From the NCBI GenBank assembly GCA_903847915.1, contig CAINEW010000022.1:1268-65267 (forward strand): DNA of 64,000 bases, written 5' to 3'. The position numbers were made by a program, and so were the translations under genes. Under the pieces are notes generated by a model. That model saw only the letters and a list, made by a program, of their open reading frames with translations. It was not told the origin of the DNA and did no database searches. Positions within the stretch are counted from its first letter, which is position 1, and every line of letters begins with the position of its first letter. Shown piece by piece: positions 4,551 to 58,998 of this stretch. The stretch is from an uncultured bacterium. GTDB lineage: Bacteria > Patescibacteriota > Minisyncoccia > UBA6257 > GWB1-50-10.

Positions 4551-4655
4551 ATGAAGCTCCACAACCTTATGTTGTATCTTCTGCGGAATCCGCCGAAGCA
4601 CCCTCCTTCGCTCTTCAAATTATGGAGGGTTCACCTTCATATGTATTCATGGACT
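4551..4655 (+). repeat. conserved ~100-nt motif copy 1 (ATGAAGCTCCACAAC...TTCTGCGGAATCCGCCGAA...CTTCAAATTATGGAGGG)
   Basis: About 75% identical to 22070-22175. Starts 14 nt after a TATAAT at 4532-4537 and begins with the mini-ORF MKLHNLML. Lies in the gyrA-SBP intergenic region on the strand opposite both genes. Confidence 0.5.
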
Positions 4656-9653: not shown

Positions 9654-11585
9654 GTGTGGGGATTTATTTTACATTTCCGTCTTCCTCAAGTACCATTAAG
9701 AAGAATAAAAAAACTACTTATGAAAATGAAAAAGAATGGACAACAAACAGGTCAATTAGCGCGCCAAATCGTATGGGCGGTGGGCGTGCTTTTTTTGGTG
9801 GCACTCCTCTTCTCGGGAGTGTTGGAAAATAAAGGAAAAACAGAAGTGCTCACATGGGATGCGCTCGCGAAGAAAATAGAATTAAGCGAAGTAAAAAATA
9901 TTACTGTTTCAGGTGACGCAGTACAAGTAACGCTAAAAAATGACACGAAGGCGACGCTAGAAAAAGAAACGGAATCAAGTGTGAGTGAAATGTTGGCGCG
10001 CTATGGCGTGACTCCTGAAGGCCTCAAGGGTTTTGAATACACGGTAGAAAGCGAAAGCGGAGGAAAATATTGGATGGGGATGCTCTTGCCAATCCTTTTG
10101 CCAATCGTGCTTATGCTCGGCGTGCTCTGGTGGGTATTCCGTCAGGCAAAAACCGGCGCAAACCAAGCATTCACCTTCGGAAAAATCAACGTGCGCCTTT
10201 TTGCCCAACCGAAAGATAAAACCACCTTCAAAGATGTGGCGGGTTTAAAAGAAGCGAAAGAAGAGCTTGATGAAGTAGTAGATTTTTTGAAAAATCCAAA
10301 AAAGTTTTTAGATATGGGAGCAAAAATTCCTCGTGGCGTGCTCTTGATGGGCCAGCCAGGCACGGGGAAAACCTTACTCGCGCGTGCAGTCGCAGGAGAA
10401 TCCAATGTCCCCTTCTTTCATCTCTCTGCCTCTGAATTTGTGGAAATGTTTGTAGGTGTCGGTGCCTCACGCGTCCGCGATTTATTTGCGACGGCAAAAA
10501 AAGCCGCGCCGGCAATTATTTTCGTAGATGAAATTGATGCGGTGGGACGCGAGCGAGGCACGGGCTTGGGCGGAGGCCATGATGAGCGCGAACAAACATT
10601 AAATCAAATCTTAGTAGAGATGGACGGTTTTGACCGCACGACGAATGTGATTGTAATGGCAGCCACCAATCGCCCCGATGTATTAGACGCCGCCCTTCTC
10701 CGTCCGGGACGTTTTGATCGGCGCGTGGTGCTCGATATGCCCGACATAAAAGATCGCGAAGAAATTTTGAAGATTCATGCACAGGGAAAACCGATGGCGG
10801 ACGACATAGATATGCGCGTGATTGCCGTGCGCACGCCGGGATTTGCAGGCGCGGATCTCGCGAATTTAGTAAACGAAGGAGCGATTTTTGCCGCGCGTCA
10901 GGGACATCCGAAAATCACACAAGAAAATTTATTAAACTCTATTGAAAAAGTATTATTGGGTCCCGCGCGCCGTGGACGCGTCATCTCCGATAAAGAAAAA
11001 GAAGTGACGGCATATCACGAAGCAGGTCACGCATTAGTCGCGGCAGGATTAAAAGACGCCGACCCGGTGCACAAAATTTCCATCATCAGCCGTGGCATGG
11101 CAGGAGGATATACATTGAAGTTGCCGATTGAAGAGCGACGACTCAACACTCGCGCGCAATTTGTGGCAGATCTCGCGGTGGCTTTCGGGGGGTACGTTGC
11201 AGAACTTTTGATGTTTAAAGATATCACGACCGGTTCATCAAACGACATTAAAAACGCGACTGAACTTGCTCATAGAATGGTGATGCAATATGGCATGAGC
11301 GATAAATTAGGTCCTCGCGCATTTGGAAAAGTGCACGACGCGATATTCTTAGGACGCGAACTTTCTACTGAAAAAGATTATTCAGAAAATCTCGGCACGG
11401 TGATTGATGAAGAAGTAAATCAATTTATGAATCGCGCCTTGCAAGCGGCGAAGCGAATTGTCGCGACAAATAAAGATGCGCTTCATACGATTGCACGCCG
11501 ATTGATGGAAAAAGAAACGATTGAACAAGAAGAATTTGAAAAAATCGTACGCGGTTTTCAATTAAAGCCCGCCGTGATACGATAG
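9654..11585 (+). CDS. ftsH: ATP-dependent zinc metalloprotease FtsH
   Basis: Walker [23 protein letters not shown], an AAA second region of homology, and the HEAGHALVA zinc motif. The true start may be the internal MKMKKNG near 9720. Confidence 0.92.
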
Positions 11586-12001
11586 AATTTCGGGAGGATC
11601 AGGATCAGTAGTCCGCCCGGCTGACGCTAGTCGGACAGGCTTAGTGGAAGCTTTAGCGAAGGCAGGTACCTCGGTGTTGATGATTTCGTTTATATTAGGT
11701 CTGGATCAGTAGCTTAGTGGTTAAAGCTCCGAGCTTATACCTCGGCGACCGAAGGTTCAAATCCTTCCTGATCCACAAGCGTCTTACTTGCCTCGCCGAA
11801 GCTTTAGCGAAGGCAGGTACACGCTAGGTTCCAGGTTCGAATCCCGGCATGCCCACACGAGCACATAGCTCGTATTATCTAATTAGGGCGGTTAGCTTCG
11901 GCCCAAGGCCGATCCGCCTAGGGCGGACAGCGGTACCCGCCAGAATGACTTGTCGGGCTGGAGTCGGGCAGGGAGCAACTTTTTTACACGTTATCTAATT
12001 A
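11586..12001 (+). repeat. mosaic tRNA-fragment / repeat region surrounding tRNA-Ile and tRNA-Val
   Basis: The first 10 nt of tRNA-Ile (GGATCAGTAG) are duplicated at 11604. The 23-mer TATCTAATTAGGGCGGTTAGCT (Val-tRNA 5' flank plus start) is duplicated at 11874 and 11988. There are two copies of GAAGCTTTAGCGAAGGCAGGTAC (11648, 11799) and a partial copy of the GTACCCGCCAGAATGACTTGTCGGGCTGG core also seen at 53.4 and 57.7 kb. Confidence 0.6.
11703..11775 (+). tRNA. tRNA-Ile (anticodon TAT/UAU)
   Basis: Hand-folded. Acceptor GGATCAG/CTGATCC, D-stem GCTT/AAGC, anticodon stem CCGAG/CTCGG with loop CTTATAC (U33, A37), T-arm GAAGG-TTCAAAT-CCTTC, discriminator A. No encoded CCA. Confidence 0.7.
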
Positions 12002-12076
12002 GGGCGGTTAGCTCAGTGGTAGAGCAACACTTTTACACAGTGAAGGTCATAGGTTCAAATCCTATACCGCCCACCA
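12002..12076 (+). tRNA. tRNA-Val (anticodon TAC)
   Basis: Acceptor GGGCGGT/ACCGCCC, D-arm GCTC-AGTGGTA-GAGC, anticodon loop TTTACAC, T-arm ATAGG-TTCAAAT-CCTAT, discriminator A and encoded CCA. Confidence 0.8.
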
Positions 12077-12083
12077 AAACATT

Positions 12084-13907
12084 ATGTGTGGCATTGTTGG
12101 ATATATAGGCAAAGAGCAATCACTCCCCATTCTTCTGAATGGGTTGAAAGCGCTTGAATATCGTGGATATGACTCTGCGGGCGTGGCAATAGGAGACAAA
12201 GGAACAATAACTATCAAAAAAGCAGTGGGACAAGTAAAAGTATTAGAGTCGTCATTAGCTACCGACCATCCTATCCAAGGAACTATTGGTATTGGTCACA
12301 CTCGTTGGGCAACACACGGAGTGCCGAATGAACTGAACGCACATCCGCACAGTGATTGTAAAGGACGCATCGCAGTCGTGCATAATGGCATTATTGAAAA
12401 TTACAAAGAACTCAAAACATATTTAGAGAATCATGGACATATATTTAGATCAGACACGGATACCGAAATAGTGCCTCATCTTATTGAAGATTTTTTAAAC
12501 AAAAGAAATAATTTCGATTCCGCGCTTTTTGATGCATTGAAAATGATACGAGGCGCCTATGCACTCGTGATTATGGACGCAGAAAATCCTACCACGCTTT
12601 ATGCAACCAAACGCTCAAGTCCGTTAGTTATCGGCGTGGGAAATAACGAAAATTTTTTAGCGTCTGACCCTTCTGCGCTCATCGGAAAAACAAAAGACGT
12701 AATTTATTTAAACGATGGAGAGGTGGCAACCATCACAAGTGAAAATATTAGTGTGGTAAATATTGAACAACAAAAAACGTCATTTGAAATTGTCCGTTTA
12801 GAATGGGATTTGGAACAATCACAAAAAGGCAACTTCCCTCATTTTATGTTGAAAGAAATTTTTGAAGGACCGGAAGTAGTGCGCTCTACCTTTAGAGGAA
12901 GAATAAAAAGTGAAGATAATTTGGTGAAATTAGGAGGATTGGATCAAGTGAGAGATAAGTTAAAAGACACAAAAAGAATACTCATTCTTGCCTGTGGGAC
13001 GTCCTACTATGCCGGGCTCGTGGGCGAATATCTTTTTGAAGAAATTGCAGGCATTCCTACCGAAGTGCATTTTGCTTCAGAATTTCGTTATCGCGAAGAA
13101 CCGTTTGATGAAGGAACGATAGCGATTGTGATTTCGCAATCAGGAGAAACTGCCGATACCCTTGCCGCACTCCATAAAGCCAAAGAGTATGGATTGATGA
13201 CTTTAAGTGTAGTGAATACTGTGGGGTCTACCATTGCACGTGAATCAGATGCGGGGGTCTACAATCACGCAGGCCCAGAAATTGGTGTGGCATCCACGAA
13301 ATCATTTCTCTCACAGTTAACCGTACTTGTGATGATAGCGATTTATTTTTCAAAAGATAAATCAAAAACACAGCTTATTTTGGAAGAACTTGAAAAGATT
13401 CCAGAAAAAATAGAAAAGATTTTGGCGCAATCTGAATTATTGAAAAAGCTCGCAGAAAAGTACAATCACTACGAACACTTCCTTTTTCTTGGGCGACGTT
13501 ACAATTATCCAGTCGCATTAGAAGGCGCATTAAAATTAAAAGAAATATCCTATATGCACGCCGAGGGCTATGGCGCGGGTGAGATGAAACACGGTCCGAT
13601 TGCGATGATCAGTCCCGACTTCCCTACGATGGCAATCGTGCCCCATAATAGTGTGTCAGAAAAAATGATGTCTAACCTCGAAGAAATAAAAGCGCGTAAA
13701 GGAACTCTATTTGCCATCGCAACCGAAGGAGACACAACCATCGCCTCACTCGCAAACGACGTGTTCTATATTCCAAAAACGATAGAGCCACTAGAACCCC
13801 TTTTGACCGTAGTCCCCCTCCAGCTGTTTGCTTATTATGTGGGCACACAACGAGGATTTGATGTAGATAAGCCAAGAAACCTCGCAAAATCCGTCACAGT
13901 GGAATAG
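12084..13907 (+). CDS. glmS: glutamine--fructose-6-phosphate aminotransferase
   Basis: Begins MCGIVGYIG with an N-terminal nucleophile Cys and has two SIS domains; 607 aa. Confidence 0.93.
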   Translation: MCGIVGYIGKEQSLPILLNGLKALEYRGYDSAGVAIGDKGTITIKKAVGQVKVLESSLATDHPIQGTIGIGHTRWATHGVPNELNAHPHSDCKGRIAVVHNGIIENYKELKTYLENHGHIFRSDTDTEIVPHLIEDFLNKRNNFDSALFDALKMIRGAYALVIMDAENPTTLYATKRSSPLVIGVGNNENFLASDPSALIGKTKDVIYLNDGEVATITSENISVVNIEQQKTSFEIVRLEWDLEQSQKGNFPHFMLKEIFEGPEVVRSTFRGRIKSEDNLVKLGGLDQVRDKLKDTKRILILACGTSYYAGLVGEYLFEEIAGIPTEVHFASEFRYREEPFDEGTIAIVISQSGETADTLAALHKAKEYGLMTLSVVNTVGSTIARESDAGVYNHAGPEIGVASTKSFLSQLTVLVMIAIYFSKDKSKTQLILEELEKIPEKIEKILAQSELLKKLAEKYNHYEHFLFLGRRYNYPVALEGALKLKEISYMHAEGYGAGEMKHGPIAMISPDFPTMAIVPHNSVSEKMMSNLEEIKARKGTLFAIATEGDTTIASLANDVFYIPKTIEPLEPLLTVVPLQLFAYYVGTQRGFDVDKPRNLAKSVTVE

Positions 13908-22069: not shown

Positions 22070-22175
22070 TATTTTATGAAGCTACACAACACTATGTTGT
22101 GATTTTTCTGCGGAATCCGCCGAAACATAATCCTTATTTCTTCAAGTTATAGAAGAGTGTAAATCATATACATTG
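22070..22175 (+). repeat. conserved ~100-nt motif copy 2 (ATGAAGCTACACAAC...TTCTGCGGAATCCGCCGAA...CTTCAAGTTATAGAAGAG)
   Basis: Homologous to 4551-4655; contains the mini-ORF MKLHNTML-stop. About 60 nt upstream of yraN. An extended -10 (TGTATAAT) lies at 22014-22021. Confidence 0.5.
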
Positions 22176-51869: not shown

Positions 51870-51939
51870 AATAACAAATATGAGATTTTGAGCTTAATAG
51901 GATATATGTGTAATGCATATTTTCACTAAAAATCGGCTT

Positions 51940-52136
51940 GCAATTCCGTAGCTTTAGCGAAGGATTGCGGAAGCGGAAGGAGTCGAACGTCGCTCTGCTC
52001 CTTAAAAACCCATGGTTTTCAATACATTCCTCTACGGAAGGGACGCGGTTACTTCCCTTCCGACCCATCCCTCATTCGAATCCTTCATCACTATATAACA
52101 AAAAAGAACGACATAAAGTCGTCCCTTTTTGTTATG
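51940..52136 (-). repeat. tRNA-trailing mosaic element, copy after tRNA-Ser(TGA)
   Basis: Described in tRNA orientation. Hairpin AACAAAAAGGGACGAC...GTCGTTCTTTTTGTT; inverted T-arm GAAGGATTCGAAT; GGGTCGG plus hairpin GGAAGGGA/TCCCTTCC; hairpin AAAACC-ATG-GGTTTT; AAGGAG; GACGTTCGAC; direct repeat CTCCTTCCGCTTCCGCA of the tRNA 3' end; then CTTCGCTAAAGCTACGGAATTGCAAG. Confidence 0.6.
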
Positions 52137-52266: not shown

Positions 52267-52593
52267 TTAGTGCGAGAAAATAGATGTCGTGATCGCTTCA
52301 CGTGCCCATAGTGTAAGTGTTTCTCTATTTTCAATAATTTCTTCAGGGACTTCATAATAATTTTTTAACACCTGTCTTTTGCTCGGGGCAAAAGGTTGCA
52401 TATTGTATTGTTCAAATTTTTTCTTGGTAATTTCATCTGTTTTAAAATAGAGATGATTATTTGAAATGATAGCAAAGAAAGTAGCACCGGCATAAAATCC
52501 ATAACCAGAAAACATTTTTCGTGCCCGCACATTCTCCAATTCGTTTAATTGATCTAGTACAAAATCACAAAAAGAATCTTGATGTGTATGCAT
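52267..52593 (-). CDS. TfoX/Sxy N-terminal domain protein (competence-regulator-like)
   Basis: RKMFSGYGFYAGATFFAIISNNHLYFKTDE matches the TfoX_N core (MFGGYGLY...LYLK). Confidence 0.6.
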   Translation of the reverse strand: MHTHQDSFCDFVLDQLNELENVRARKMFSGYGFYAGATFFAIISNNHLYFKTDEITKKKFEQYNMQPFAPSKRQVLKNYYEVPEEIIENRETLTLWAREAITTSIFSH

Positions 52594-53346: not shown

Positions 53347-53535
53347 CAGGAGGATTTGAACAAGGAGTGGGGTCGGGAGAACACTTGATCTCCCGTGTCG
53401 GAAACCCGCCCGAACGTACCCCGCCAGAATGACTTGTCGGGCTGGCGTTCGGTACGGGCGGGCATTAAAACCGAAGGGTTTTAAAAAATATGCATTCGCA
53501 TATTTTGTTTAACTCCTCCACCTTCCGCCTTTGCT
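53347..53535 (+). repeat. tRNA-trailing mosaic element, copy after tRNA-Ser(CGA)
   Basis: Inverted T-arm GGAGGATTTGAAC immediately after the tRNA; GGGGTCGG plus hairpin GGGAGA-ACACTTGA-TCTCCC; palindromic core CCCGCCCGAACGTACCCCGCCAGAATGACTTGTCGGGCTGGCGTTCGGTACGGGCGGG; hairpin TTAAAACC-GAA-GGGTTTTAA; direct repeat TCCTCCACCTTCCGC of the tRNA 3' end at 53518-53533. Confidence 0.6.
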
Positions 53536-53600: not shown

Positions 53601-54146
53601 TTATAATCCTTGATGACGGGATCGTTGAGTACGGTTTATAAGTTCATCGCGGATTAATTCTGCGTCTGATTGAGAAAGTCCAGGTAGTCTTCCTTCTGAC
53701 ATCGCCGCGTTAGGAGCACTATATCCTGCAGTTTGGATTTGTAAATCAGAGAGTCCTAATATGCGCGCGATGATACCACGATAAATATCCACATTTTGAA
53801 TACGATCGTAAGGAATAGTGACATAACGTTTCCAAATCACCCCTGATTCTTTTTTAAACCCTTGTTCAGTAAGTTCATAGCGATAATAGTGATAAGAAAG
53901 GCGCGCCCAACAATACGCTCCTCCCACGGTCAAAACAATCCAGAAGAAAAAGGAAGAACCAAGAAATCCAAAAATCCATGTAGGATCGCCTTGTGTATTC
54001 ATTGAGACAAAGAAAGTAACCGCTCCCATCGTAATAATAGAGCCTGCAAACCATGCAAAAATCGCAAAAAGAGGAAGAAGTTTAAGAGTAAAAAGCCACA
54101 CTGCTTTCGGATCAAGTTGTTTCATAATGAATTTATTGTAATACAC
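53601..54146 (-). CDS. bacterial PH domain (bPH_2/YdbS-like) membrane protein
   Basis: Two N-terminal TM helices followed by a PH-like domain (…GVIWKRYVTIPYDRIQNVDIYRGIIARILGLSDLQIQTAG). Confidence 0.6.
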   Translation of the reverse strand: MYYNKFIMKQLDPKAVWLFTLKLLPLFAIFAWFAGSIITMGAVTFFVSMNTQGDPTWIFGFLGSSFFFWIVLTVGGAYCWARLSYHYYRYELTEQGFKKESGVIWKRYVTIPYDRIQNVDIYRGIIARILGLSDLQIQTAGYSAPNAAMSEGRLPGLSQSDAELIRDELINRTQRSRHQGL

Positions 54147-54197
54147 TAAAAGTTAAAAAATCAAATTAGTGCTCGGGGCGGGGATCGCCGCTCAAAT

Positions 54198-54479
54198 TTA
54201 TTTGAGCGATCCTCGCCCATCTTTAATGGGCGGGAACCCGCATTGAAAATATGTTTTTAATTTTCTTCTTCCTGCGCCACTTTTCCAGTAACGCTCTCTT
54301 ATTTTTGCGGTTGCAAGATCAAAGCTCTCCTCAATAAAAAGAATAATAAATGGTCTTCGGTTACGGGTTGCATCAACCTTTCCATTCATATGTTCCTCGA
54401 ATCGAATATCAATGTTTTTGGCATATCCCACATACGTTCTTTTGTCCTTTATACTTTGTAAAATATAAACACAATACAT
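54198..54479 (-). CDS. GIY-YIG nuclease family protein (YhbQ/UPF0213-like)
   Basis: MYCVYILQSIKDKRTYVGYAKNIDIRFEEHMNGK is a GIY-YIG motif. Start set at the internal Met because the longer ORF-track model (to 54551) overlaps tRNA-Leu. The ATG shares its A with the terminal A of the tRNA's encoded CCA. Confidence 0.6.
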   Translation of the reverse strand: MYCVYILQSIKDKRTYVGYAKNIDIRFEEHMNGKVDATRNRRPFIILFIEESFDLATAKIRERYWKSGAGRRKLKTYFQCGFPPIKDGRGSLK

Positions 54480-54565
54480 GGTGCTCGGAGTGGGAGTCGA
54501 ACCCACATGACCTTTATGGTCACAACATTTTAAGTGTTGCGCGTAAACCATTCCGCCATCCGAGC
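54479..54565 (-). tRNA. tRNA-Leu (anticodon TAA), type II, CCA encoded
   Basis: Reverse complement GCTCGGA-TG-GCGG...; anticodon stem CAACA/TGTTG with loop CTTAAAA; long variable arm; T-arm GTGGG-TTCGACT-CCCAC; acceptor TCCGAGC-A-CCA. Confidence 0.8.
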
Positions 54566-56638: not shown

Positions 56639-56725
56639 GGAGGCGTGTCTGAGCGGTCTAAAGAAGCATCCTGCTAAGATGTTGATCGGGAAACCGGTCC
56701 GAAGGTTCGAATCCTTCCGCCTCCG
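56639..56725 (+). tRNA. tRNA-Ser (anticodon GCT), type II
   Basis: GGAGGCG...; anticodon stem GCATC/GATGT with loop CTGCTAA; long variable arm; T-arm GAAGG-TTCGAAT-CCTTC; acceptor CGCCTCC; discriminator G. Confidence 0.75.
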
Positions 56726-56940
56726 CATAACAAAAAGGAACGACTTTATGTCGTCCTCTTTTTGTTATATGATGACGAAGGATTCGAACAAGAGAGGGGT
56801 CGGGAGAACATCTGGTCTCCCGTGTTGGAAATAGCCCAAAGGGCGTTTAGAAACCACGGGTTTCTAAGGAGCAAAGCGACGCTCGACTACCTTCCGCCTC
56901 CGCAATTCTTCGCTAAAGCTACGGAATTGCAAGACGATTT
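56726..56940 (+). repeat. tRNA-trailing mosaic element, copy after tRNA-Ser(GCT)
   Basis: About 80% identical along its full length to the copy after tRNA-Ser(TGA). Hairpin AACAAAAAGGAACGAC/GTCGTCCTCTTTTTGTT; inverted T-arm GAAGGATTCGAAC; GGGGTCGG plus hairpin GGGAGA/TCTCCC; hairpin AGAAACC-ACG-GGTTTCT; AAGGAG; GACGCTCGAC; direct repeat CTACCTTCCGCCTCCGCA; CTTCGCTAAAGCTACGGAATTGCAAG. Confidence 0.6.
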
Positions 56941-57355
56941 AGTAAGGAAGTCCGGTGTAAAACACACGACCCTGACGAAAATCGAGGGAGATTTTATACA
57001 AAAGCCAAGTGTCCAAGTTATAGCGAAAATCGCTAAAGCGTTTCGTGAAGCAGCAAAATCCAATCAGAACTACAAATTAACGGTAAAAAATGGTGGGGTA
57101 TATGGCAGATCTAACAGTGGAGAGAGAATCCAAATTAATAATCTTGGTAAATGGCTTTTTGGAGTTTCTGGTTATAGGGGTCACGTGATCTATGGTCCTA
57201 TTTCAGCGACAGAATTTCGCGTCTATTATCCGGAAGGCGCACCAATTGAAGTTGTGAAGATGCTCGAAACTATTACTGGAGAAATGGTAAAGAGTAAATG
57301 TCTCTATTGGGGTAACACCGCCTACGAAGATCATTGGATGGCAACACAAATGTAG
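56927..57355 (+). CDS. XRE-type HTH-like protein (N-terminus uncertain)
   Basis: …LVRKSGVKHTTLTKIEGDFIQKPSVQVIAKIAKAF resembles HTH_3 helices 2-4. The ORF-track model starts at 56762 (TTG) inside the repeat element; the alternative TTG at 56927 lies at the element border. Followed by a terminator at 57372-57398. Confidence 0.35.
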   Translation: MQDDLVRKSGVKHTTLTKIEGDFIQKPSVQVIAKIAKAFREAAKSNQNYKLTVKNGGVYGRSNSGERIQINNLGKWLFGVSGYRGHVIYGPISATEFRVYYPEGAPIEVVKMLETITGEMVKSKCLYWGNTAYEDHWMATQM

Positions 57356-57628: not shown

Positions 57629-57852
57629 CAAGATAATATAGTAGGTTGAAAAAATTAATAAAGGAGAATCGAACACGAGGAGGAGTCGGGAGGAAACGGG
57701 AGTGTCCTCCCGCGAAGGAGATCCCGCTCGTACCGAACGCCAGCCTGACAAATCATTCCGGGCGGGGTACGTTCGGGCGGGTATTCAGAACCGTGGGTTC
57801 TGAAGGAGTCCGCCCTGGGCGGACGACGTTCGCTTCTCCTTGGGAGTACAAG
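57629..57852 (+). repeat. tRNA-trailing mosaic element, copy after tRNA-Glu
   Basis: Inverted T-arm AAGGAGAATCGAAC; hairpin GGGAGGA/TCCTCCC; the palindromic core in reverse orientation (CCGAACGCCAGCCTGACAAATCATTCCGGGCGGGGTACGTTCGGGCGGG); hairpin CAGAACC-GTG-GGTTCTG; AAGGAG; hairpin GTCCGCCCTGGGCGGAC; GACGTTCGC; 19-nt direct repeat TTCTCCTTGGGAGTACAAG of the tRNA 3' end at 57834-57852. Confidence 0.6.
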
Positions 57853-58876: not shown

Positions 58877-58998
58877 AAATTGCGAAATCGGATTATTTGA
58901 GATATAGTATAAGAGAATTTAATTATTCATTTCGGAAGGATAAGTTTTTAAATAAAAGCGAAAGAGGGCTGTGCCCTTCGTAGCTTGAGCGAAGAAGG

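Follow-up and report, generated by a model that had tools for sequence, protein, structure and literature searches.

Interrupted copies of tRNA 5' halves in the ftsH-glmS spacer of a Patescibacteria genome and their possible link to minimal GIY-YIG nucleases

Two tRNA genes and three tRNA fragments between ftsH and glmS

The spacer between ftsH (9654-11585) and glmS was investigated in a stretch of 64,000 nucleotides (nt), in the following called the window, whose host belongs to the Patescibacteria (candidate phyla radiation, CPR). The top non-self matches of GlmS (12084-13907) had 79% identity and came from Patescibacteria, Campbellbacteria and Azambacteria. The spacer is 498 nt long and contains two working transfer RNA (tRNA) genes and three dead tRNA fragments. 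Upstream of tRNA-Ile(UAU) and of tRNA-Val(UAC) lie copies of the 5' part of the respective gene (pseudo-Ile and pseudo-Val), which are split by GC-rich inserts; the box hairpin and a tRNA-Pro-like 3' relic sit between the two genes. In a first-pass annotation the region 11586-12001 was described as a mosaic of tRNA pieces, with inserts lying between a duplicated tRNA end and the tRNA. The alignment gave ordered, collinear pseudo-copies instead, and the inserts are actually inside a longer pseudo-copy of the 5' half, which in the case of Val reaches the anticodon loop. This extension had been missed. The features are listed by position; ranges after nt refer to the tRNA.

11599-11610, plus strand: pseudo-Ile, 3 nt of leader and nt 1-9 (TCA GGATCAGTA), 9/9 identical to 11703-11711
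11611-11638, plus strand: pseudo-Ile insert GTCCGCCCGGCTGACGCTAGTCGGACAG, 28 nt, GC-rich, between nt 9 and 10
11639-11652, plus strand: pseudo-Ile nt 10-18 (GCTTAGTGG, 9/9), then AAGCT (D-stem 3' strand and nt 26)
11647-11669, plus strand: box copy 1 (GAAGCTTTAGCGAAGGCAGGTAC) in place of the pseudo-Ile anticodon stem-loop; CTCGG at 11670-11674
11703-11776, plus strand: functional tRNA-Ile(UAU) (ARAGORN/Rfam, 74.6 bits)
11785-11820, plus strand: box hairpin, with 5' arm TACTTGCCTCGC, loop and box copy 2 (11798-11820)
11826-11856, plus strand: orphan tRNA 3' fragment, T-arm (one mismatch) and acceptor 3' strand
11875-11897, plus strand: pseudo-Val, 11-nt leader and nt 1-12, 23/23 identical to 11991-12013
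11898-11927, plus strand: pseudo-Val insert 1, 30 nt, hairpins TCGGCCCAAGGCCGA and TCCGCCTAGGGCGGA, at the border of D-stem 5' strand and D-loop
11928-11935, plus strand: pseudo-Val D-loop nt 13-20, CAGCGGTA, 7/8
11936-11972, plus strand: pseudo-Val insert 2, 37 nt, half core CCCGCCAGAATGACTTGTCGGGCTGG and AGTCGGGCAGG, at the border of D-loop and D-stem 3' strand
11973-11989, plus strand: pseudo-Val nt 21-37, GAGCAACTTTTTTACAC, 15/17, stopping at the end of the anticodon loop
11990-12001, plus strand: G and a second copy of the 11-nt leader, TTATCTAATTA
12002-12076, plus strand: functional tRNA-Val(UAC) (ARAGORN/Rfam, 73 bits)

Pseudo-Val has the order leader with nt 1-12, insert, nt 13-20, insert, nt 21-37. 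Both borders of the D-loop are split by a GC-rich insert, and 3 changes in 48 nt were counted relative to the real gene. Its first part, the 23-mer TTATCTAATTAGGGCGGTTAGCT, is present exactly at 11875 and 11991; this duplication had been recognised before, with a spacing of 114 nt, which has to be corrected to 116 nt. The previously reported hairpin TCCGCC-TAG-GGCGGA was located at 11913-11927 (TCCGCCTAGGGCGGA). Mini-hairpins like those of insert 1 occupy variable positions of a widespread Patescibacteria element. From the pseudo-half to the real tRNA the spacer comprises 12 nt for Val and 55 nt for Ile. Two other assignments of the Val upstream segment were given up: GAGCAAC..TTTACAC, considered as part of a GGGTCGGGAG-type hairpin, corresponds to tRNA-Val nt 21-37 (15/17, in the right order), and a transfer-messenger RNA (tmRNA), signal recognition particle (SRP) RNA or other tRNA-like RNA was rejected after analysis with ARAGORN and Rfam.

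In pseudo-Ile, 3 nt of leader and nt 1-9 are followed by the 28-nt insert, nt 10-18 with AAGCT, and box copy 1; there is an additional GGATCA at 11596-11601. The motif TC(A/T)GGATCAGTAG is present at 11599 and 11700, and TCAGGATCAGTAG at 11599 forms a repeat with TCTGGATCAGTAG at 11700. The first-pass annotation correctly gave a duplicated tRNA-Ile start, followed by an insert and then TTAGTGG; its values of 99 nt for the distance and 29 nt for the insert were replaced by 101 nt (start to start) and 28 nt, with GCTTAGTGG behind the insert. The insert is related to the E4 hairpin GTCCGCCCTGGGCGGAC. The box GAAGCTTTAGCGAAGGCAGGTAC occurs exactly at 11647 and 11798, and the 5' arm of the box hairpin can alternatively pair with box copy 1 across tRNA-Ile. 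The orphan 3' fragment is closest to Patescibacteria tRNA-Pro (24/27 against the tRNA-Pro 3' end in locus L223). As a partner of Ile or Val it was rejected, since its acceptor strand fits neither.

Upstream regions were aligned to the downstream tRNA with long insertions allowed, and the collinear score was compared with 2000 shuffles as null. For tRNA-Val a score of 65 was obtained vs 14 +/- 2.3 for the shuffled sequences, for tRNA-Ile 29 vs 13.5 +/- 2.3; no shuffle reached the real value in either case (0/2000 each). Upstream self-similarity was detected for only two of the 13 tRNAs of the window, Val and Ile (z = 12.6 and 5.8), and five others have downstream copies of their own 3' end. The exact repeats of the region comprise 23-mers, a 13-mer and a 26-mer. 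All repeats listed in the first-pass annotation are real, with offsets of 1-2 nt, and tRNA 5' ends are duplicated for both Ile and Val, as it had stated.

A split or intron-containing tRNA was tested as well and rejected. The copies end at nt 37 (Val) and nt 18-26 (Ile), only the downstream genes are called by ARAGORN and Rfam, and the orphan 3' fragment does not match in its acceptor strand. With Rfam, at the gathering threshold and down to E = 10, nothing apart from tRNAs was detected in the region, the tRNA island at 51.8-59.9 kb and three comparison loci. Synteny with the nearest relatives yielded no empty site for comparison, the best GlmS homologues (79% identical) being without the order ftsH-tRNA-tRNA-glmS. 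The tRNA-Ile at 11703-11776 has a UAU anticodon, which indicates AUA decoding without a lysidine-modified CAU tRNA. In bacteria this way of reading AUA is uncommon, the lysidine-modified CAU tRNA being the usual route.

Recurrence of the layout and a nuclease gene at other tRNA genes

Comparison loci (L numbers) were collected by two scans and by homology to the nucleases described below. Species-representative genomes, with the window's own genome not among them, were scanned for a 58-nt palindrome, called the core, one half of which is present in insert 2; the 36 loci obtained belong mainly to Flavobacteriaceae, one to Saccharibacteria. Metagenomes were scanned with the exact 22-nt pattern of the hairpin that forms the backbone of elements located 3' of other tRNAs of the window, and at least 120 loci were found (including L165-L244 and beyond).

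Upstream of tRNA genes a recurring layout was identified in these loci, which include Flavobacteriaceae, Olivibacter, Saccharibacteria and many contigs of Patescibacteria. A pseudo 5' half ends at nt 35-41, carries GC hairpins after nt 9-13 and/or nt 20-22 and lies 10-31 nt before the tRNA; in a few pseudo-5' halves the inserts follow nt 15-18. Before tRNA-Met of a Flavobacteriaceae metagenome-assembled genome (MAG; L142) the order is nt 1-22, core, nt 23-39, 20 nt and the real gene. The isolate Gelidibacter salicanalis PAMC21136 (L143) has two tandem pseudo-halves before tRNA-Met, each with a 28-nt insert after nt 9, the core after nt 22 and its end at nt 36. Length, position and ends (CCGCC...CGGRCAG) of this 28-nt insert are the same as or similar to those of the pseudo-Ile insert. 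The insertion point of insert 2 in pseudo-Val is that of the core in L142, L143 and L222 and of a hairpin in L213 and L296. The full layout was also found in the metagenome contigs L222 (Met), L188 (Pro) and L257 (Cys), and shorter copies ending at nt 21-28 lie upstream of tRNA-Arg in L206 and tRNA-Gln in L176.

Looser versions with longer spacers were detected at tRNA-Ala and tRNA-Thr of Saccharibacteria. In L131 a pseudo-5' start, its D-loop occupied by the core, lies before tRNA-Thr, and a pseudo-3' half lies behind this gene. The acceptor strands of these fragments pair mutually (GCCGATG/CATCGGC) and differ from the live gene. At tRNA-Ala of the same locus, two pseudo-5' halves before the gene and two pseudo-3' halves after it were found; one of the latter contains a module homologous to the box hairpin, in the same relative position as in the window. 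Altogether, pseudo-halves that end in the anticodon loop and have inserts at the same two D-arm positions were observed for eight tRNA types in three phyla. A 12-nt 5' probe recurs upstream in 14 of 144 tRNAs of this biased set, vs 1 and 0 in the controls. The core is present in both orientations at the same tRNA site, which favours a palindromic insert at the DNA level over a strand-specific RNA, and the content of the inserts varies by locus (20 to 70 nt of unrelated hairpins).

A GIY-YIG nuclease open reading frame (ORF) is located exactly between pseudo-half and tRNA in four loci. In L213 the ORF, of 85 amino acids (aa), comes after pseudo-tRNA-Asn nt 1-35, in which the hairpin CCTGCCTGCCGGTAGGCAGG follows nt 20, and before the live tRNA-Asn, whose nt 8-10 (TAG) provide the stop codon. 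Downstream of it lies a backbone element with a terminal tRNA copy that pairs with the old acceptor strand, not with the new one. Both in L213 and at tRNA-Thr of L131 the flanking fragments pair mutually, unlike the live tRNA, and thus an older gene was split and replaced. L174 has the order nt 1-25 of tRNA-Ile(GAT), interrupted in the D-loop by the full 58-nt core, then the ORF and the live tRNA. In L296 (Olivibacter) pseudo-tRNA-Arg, with a 20-nt hairpin after the D-loop, precedes ORF and live tRNA-Arg, and in L300 (Flavobacterium MAG, tRNA-Arg) the unit of ORF and pseudo-tRNA is present in tandem repeats. L213 (Patescibacteria) and L296 (Bacteroidota) share the 20-nt hairpin CCTGCCTGCCGG(C/T)AGGCAGG at one and the same border of the D-loop, and the nucleases of these two loci are 63% identical. 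Homologues of the nuclease of this 5' type with 55-66% identity were found in Bacteroidota (Olivibacter, Pedobacter, Cyclobacterium, Flavobacterium).

As an observation on these reading frames, the stop codon of the upstream-placed ORFs (L213 3700-3975; L174 720-970) is U8-A9-G10 (TAG) of the tRNA, and the start codon in Olivibacter and Flavobacterium lies within the variable-loop region of the old tRNA copy.

In the window only one member appears autonomous, and it is placed at the 3' side of a tRNA gene.

54198-54479, minus strand: minimal GIY-YIG nuclease ORF, 93 aa (Pfam GIY-YIG 1.8e-13), starting at the 3' end of tRNA-Leu(taa) (ACC/ATG)

Within 54130-54565 (minus strand) a copy of the T-arm (GCGGG TTC ... 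GATC CCCGC) encodes the tail of this ORF; compared with the live tRNA, the stem of this copy shows a compensatory change. Two hairpins split the T-loop of the copy, and behind it lies CCCGAGCAC, a duplicate of the 3' end of the tRNA. Among the loci selected by motif, each of the eight GIY-YIG ORFs lies less than 300 nt from a tRNA or tmRNA. In a sample independent of the repeat motifs, composed of homologues of the window's GIY-YIG protein from six Patescibacteria lineages, five of six start 2-140 nt 3' of a tRNA on the same strand. Four of these five ORFs (all but L291) run into GGGTTC and then GC-rich hairpins; behind the ORF, exact copies from T-loop to 3' end were identified in L285 (19/19) and L287 (18/18). 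The tRNA-Leu locus of the window has the same form. These proteins belong to the "minimal" Slx1-like branch of the GIY-YIG family (PMC1564403). The nearest solved structure is that of UPF0213 protein BH0048 (1zg2), followed by SLX1.

A further GIY-YIG ORF was noted in L217 (3670-4250) between smpB and the start of tmRNA, followed by three repeats of ~70 nt containing the hairpin CGCCCGAACATTTGCCAGTGCAAATGTTTTAGG. This hairpin recurs behind a tRNA-linked element in L171.

Hairpin modules inside and outside the window

The modules in the inserts have relatives in the tRNA-rich part of the window. Two full copies of the core are present.

53405-53462, plus strand: full 58-nt palindromic core within the element 3' of tRNA-Ser(cga); source family of insert 2
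57723-57782, minus strand: second full core, inverted, within the element 3' of tRNA-Glu

As reported in the first-pass annotation, a partial core copy of the region recurs at 53.4 kb and, inverted, at 57.7 kb: the 26-mer CCCGCCAGAATGACTTGTCGGGCTGG at 11936-11961 is identical to 53420-53445, and the inverted copy lies within 57723-57782. The box positions given there (twice in the region, 51951, 56906 as reverse complement, 58981) were likewise recovered, the box core AGCTTKAGCGAAG being located at 11649, 11800, 51950, 56908 (minus strand) and 58982. These five copies compare with 0.14 expected, and none of 100 shuffles reached five. The palindromes are GC-rich, with three copies of the core and five of the box in the window. 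The inserts of the pseudo-copies have common ends (TCCGCC... and AGTCGG(A/G)CAGG) and therefore appear to be a shorter and a longer form of a single module type.

Four elements at 52-58 kb, located 3' of tRNA-Ser (three genes) and tRNA-Glu (51930-52135 on the minus strand, 53348-53530, 56770-56945 and 57660-57850), have the local T-loop in reverse complement at their start and a copy of the tRNA from T-loop to 3' end at their other end. They carry the conserved backbone hairpin GGGTCGGGAGA..TCTCCCG, and two of them hold the full core, in opposite orientations. The backbone consists of the hairpin GGGTCGGGAGAAC..GTTCTCCCGTG, GGAAA, the hairpin TTAGAAACCGWGGGTTTCTAA and GAGCG..CGCGAC. The first-pass annotation had assigned the repeats around tRNA-Ile and tRNA-Val to the same element family, inserted at the 5' side of tRNAs and duplicating the 5' end instead of the 3' end. 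Self-comparison of 11.5-12.1 kb with 51.9-59.8 kb, as proposed there, revealed common core, hairpin and box modules, and a shared pool of modules can be retained. A mirror-image relation to the 3'-side elements cannot, as the backbone hairpin is not present at 11.6-12.0 kb and only small modules (core, TCCGCC..GGCGGA hairpin, box) are in common.

Some observations on these elements and their surroundings may be added. The tRNA-Ser(gct) with terminator, element and box (56639-56940) duplicates the unit of tRNA-Ser(tga) (52223-51930) in inverted orientation with 76% identity, which shows that both elements were copied with their tRNA and not inserted twice. Directly upstream of tRNA-Arg(gcg), at 58973-58998, the box loop GTAGCTTGAGCGAA is closed by a perfect stem of 7 bp (GCCCTTC/GAAGGGC), whose 5' arm repeats the first 6 nt of this tRNA (GCCCTT). 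In the boxes at 51.95 and 56.9 kb this loop is found with other 7-bp stems (GCAATTC/GAATTGC). A gene with a TfoX N-terminal domain (competence regulator) lies inside the tRNA-rich and element-rich stretch (52267-52593, minus strand). Self-comparison also gave a direct repeat of 78 nt (22076-22153 vs 4551-4626, 79% identity) without relation to the tRNA elements.

Outside the window, the core at 53405-53462 is identical (58/58) to two copies in a Flavobacteriaceae MAG (L154, L157) and matches another (set including L142) at 57/58. For a non-coding repeat, such identity between phyla points to a recent transfer or to very strong constraint. In Flavobacteriaceae, core copies occur as parts of longer mosaic repeats or of tandem arrays with 26-nt units; the inner core unit CCCGCCAGAATGACTTGTCGGGCTGG (26 nt) forms head-to-tail arrays of 4-5 units with variant loops (L134 3850-3950; L158 740-820, Sediminicola MAG). 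The core was not found in viral contigs, where a scan with a loose hairpin pattern gave unspecific GC-rich matches only. The backbone, for which no Rfam family was found, is very widespread and occurs in two contexts: 3' of tRNAs, with the T-loop reverse complement at the start and a tRNA 3'-end copy at the end, and between protein genes, where direct repeats of 7-9 nt accompany it and its end directly precedes start codons (..GTATTACCACTATG). The left end of the backbone and the T-loop of the adjacent tRNA covary.

Possible origin and meaning of the pseudo-halves

We regard the region, with moderate confidence, as a set of probable ORF-less relics, formed at the DNA level, of a GIY-YIG nuclease system targeting tRNA loops, together with portable hairpin modules. 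The autonomous form would consist of a minimal Slx1/UPF0213-type GIY-YIG gene of ~250 nt inside a tRNA gene, transcribable from the tRNA promoter, with a duplicated tRNA piece preserving one intact gene. In the 5' type the old 5' part with a hairpin in the D-loop would be followed by the nuclease ORF and the intact tRNA; in the 3' type the intact tRNA would be followed by the ORF and a hairpin-split T-arm with 3'-end copy. Breaks set by the nuclease at loop borders of tRNA genes, followed by recombinational repair, would give partial tandem duplications. The dispensable copy would then gain palindromic modules (core, box, CCGCC..GGCGG units) at loop borders in either orientation, and pseudo-Ile was probably split in the anticodon arm, too. 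From the anatomy of the region, its recurrence across phyla and the linkage of nuclease and tRNA genes, we infer the predicted cutting of tRNA genes, the making of these duplications by the nuclease and the movement of the hairpins. The interpretation in the first-pass annotation is in part supported, and, judging from the related loci, a GIY-YIG cassette that targets tRNAs is likely to have been the driver.

Several results weigh against this relic interpretation. Neither a GIY-YIG ORF nor a recognisable remnant was found in 11586-12001 (ORF list, tblastn), hence the region can be called only a relic or an ORF-less derivative, and there is no GIY-YIG ORF within 8 kb of the Flavobacteriaceae loci L142 and L143. 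The nucleases consist of the catalytic domain only (79-97 aa, Pfam GIY-YIG alone), without a separate DNA-binding domain. Pseudo-Val has the same 11-nt leader as the real gene, which a plain tandem duplication explains without a cassette, and the pseudo-halves are separated from the real tRNAs by the two short spacers only. Possibly, the Val and Ile duplications are plain tandem duplications that were induced in trans. The majority of the 58-nt core copies in Flavobacteriaceae lie away from tRNAs, and the hairpins may spread by an unrelated mechanism. Finally, the loci of the core and backbone scans were chosen by the motifs of these elements themselves, which biases the frequencies.

A serious rival, which we nevertheless judge unlikely, is that slippage duplicated leader and 5' half, and that palindromes similar to repetitive extragenic palindromic (REP) sequences or miniature inverted-repeat transposable elements (MITEs) then colonised this neutral DNA of a dense genome, with no tRNA-targeting nuclease involved; the hairpins may have been moved by another enzyme, e.g. 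a REP-associated tyrosine transposase (RAYT) or IS200-type transposase, or by repair copying. A tandem duplication across one gene end yields exactly a 5' part followed by the whole gene, and it agrees with the leader duplicated along with the Val copy and the junction of a single G. The core is also free-standing in many non-tRNA contexts of Flavobacteriaceae, in mosaic repeats and in tandem 26-nt arrays, and the pseudo-Ile insert comes after GTAG, the tag of one REP superfamily (PMC3733652); this GTAG is merely tRNA nt 7-10. Slippage leaves unexplained why eight tRNA types in three phyla share endpoints in the anticodon loop and the two D-arm insert positions, why a homologous nuclease ORF lies at the junction in L213, L174, L296 and L300, and how the compensatory old acceptor pairs arose. 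Moreover, a target-site duplication, as tested for MITEs, does not flank the D-loop inserts: no duplicated bases were detected where inserts abut tRNA nt 12/13, 20/21 and 9/10. A functional leader RNA, in which the pseudo-halves are co-transcribed with the tRNA and serve precursor stabilisation, as a processing signal, as a decoy for anticodon nucleases or tRNA-binding factors, or as a regulator of output, is given little probability. The layout before tRNA-Met is kept in two Flavobacteriaceae genera (L142, L143) and is similar in metagenome contig L222, the region has a stable fold, and there is no promoter-like or terminator-like site between copies and tRNAs. Such a function is hard to reconcile with a core that occurs in either orientation at the same site, with inserts that differ in content among loci, with copies that gather substitutions and internal deletions (second unit of L143; 3 changes in 48 nt for Val), with the missing Rfam match and with pseudo-halves at just two of the window's 13 tRNAs.

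Integrases that target tRNA genes classically leave partial tRNA duplicates behind, and the anticodon loop is among the known sublocations of the crossover. Attachment-site duplicates of a phage or integrative element that had integrated at the 5' half of the tRNA and was later lost would fit the anatomy with its endpoint in the anticodon loop. We consider this origin highly improbable, as 1-55 nt from copy to gene give no room for an element, the inserts lie inside the copy and not between copies, and no integrase or recombinase was found near the window loci or L131, whose neighbours are ftsH, glmS, a release factor and ftsEX. The duplicated part is here the 5' half, whereas integrases normally duplicate the 3' part of the tRNA. 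The contig is metagenome-assembled and has short exact repeats, as would be expected where a repeat-rich spot is assembled wrongly. An independent contig of a second sample, with the same proteins, has an identical 498-nt ftsH-glmS spacer, the repeats (23 nt) are below typical k-mer or read length, and the same architecture was found in independent assemblies including the isolate Gelidibacter salicanalis PAMC21136. In view of the second sample and the recurrence of the layout an artefact is very unlikely, and we give it next to no weight.

For the relic interpretation a precedent is known from phages. SegB of T4/T6 is a free-standing GIY-YIG homing endonuclease in a tRNA gene cluster, which recognises RAWTSGAAC, the T-loop in reverse complement, and cuts within tRNA genes at this motif; cleavage and recombinational repair lead to tandem repeats of tRNA and segB, as shown experimentally (PMC2330249; PMC13096335). 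With SegB, a mechanism by which a nuclease drives partial tandem duplications at tRNA genes has thus been tested. Common to both cases are a GIY-YIG gene among tRNA genes and tandem nuclease units, as seen in L300. In contrast, SegB is a phage protein of ~220 aa that includes a DNA-binding domain, whereas the nucleases described here have ~80-95 aa and are encoded on cellular chromosomes of several phyla. Here the ORF lies inside a split tRNA gene and is accompanied by GC-rich hairpins, and 11586-12001 itself is ORF-less.

REP sequences and bacterial interspersed mosaic elements (BIMEs) are likewise short, GC-rich, imperfect palindromes without ORF and target-site duplication that form mosaics, and one of the inserts follows GTAG (PMC3733652; PMC3184786). 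REP families are species-specific, whereas the 58-nt core is identical in Flavobacteriaceae and a Patescibacterium, and the inserts are found at defined positions of tRNA-like sequence. Attachment-site duplicates of tyrosine integrases resemble the region in the duplicated tRNA piece, the one surviving intact gene and the loops as breakpoints; here the 5' half is duplicated and itself interrupted, with neither integrase nor cargo. In archaeal disrupted or split tRNA genes, too, inserted DNA breaks the gene at loops and halves remain; the splitting was attributed to the insertion of mobile elements, and the functional halves are joined by a splicing endonuclease (PMC3293823, PMC3218864). In the region investigated here an intact gene stands beside dead halves, and a splicing system need not be assumed. 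Mobile GC clusters and double-hairpin elements of fungal mitochondria are GC-rich palindromes in an AT-rich compact genome, often near tRNA and GIY-YIG or LAGLIDADG genes. They differ in their organelle setting and belong to unrelated families, and to our knowledge no fixed positions in tRNA copies have been described for them.

The literature on tRNA fragments, REPs and GIY-YIG proteins was searched; the SegB precedent was found, and no description of the layout or of the core sequence. The feature combines known kinds, the SegB-type association of nuclease and tRNA and small palindromic repeats, in a new variant form. We put forward only tentatively, from sequence comparison, that an undescribed class of selfish elements may be common to Patescibacteria and Bacteroidota. 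A minimal Slx1-like GIY-YIG gene would split the tRNA at a loop, ride on the tRNA promoter, carry or create the replacement piece and travel with GC-rich hairpins by which the dead copy is marked or neutralised; derivatives without the ORF would persist as hairpin-filled pseudo-halves, as in the window. If this is true, the 58/58 core and the roughly 60% identical nucleases would be a record of recent exchange between phyla, possibly between episymbiont and host.

No target in a genome is more conserved than the tRNA genes. By homing to tRNA loops, a mobile system could cross the boundaries of phyla, as the identical core in Flavobacteriaceae and a Patescibacterium suggests. Should the link to the nuclease fail, the region would still be a clean example of dispensable gene fragments as sinks for small palindromic repeats. 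If the link holds, SegB-type biology would extend from phages to the chromosomes of ultra-small bacteria, and the large uncharacterised family of minimal bacterial GIY-YIG proteins (UPF0213) would have a testable role. Furthermore, the source of tRNA pseudo-fragments that confuse tRNA annotation would be explained, and a marker of DNA exchange between bacteria of the candidate phyla and their possible hosts would be available.

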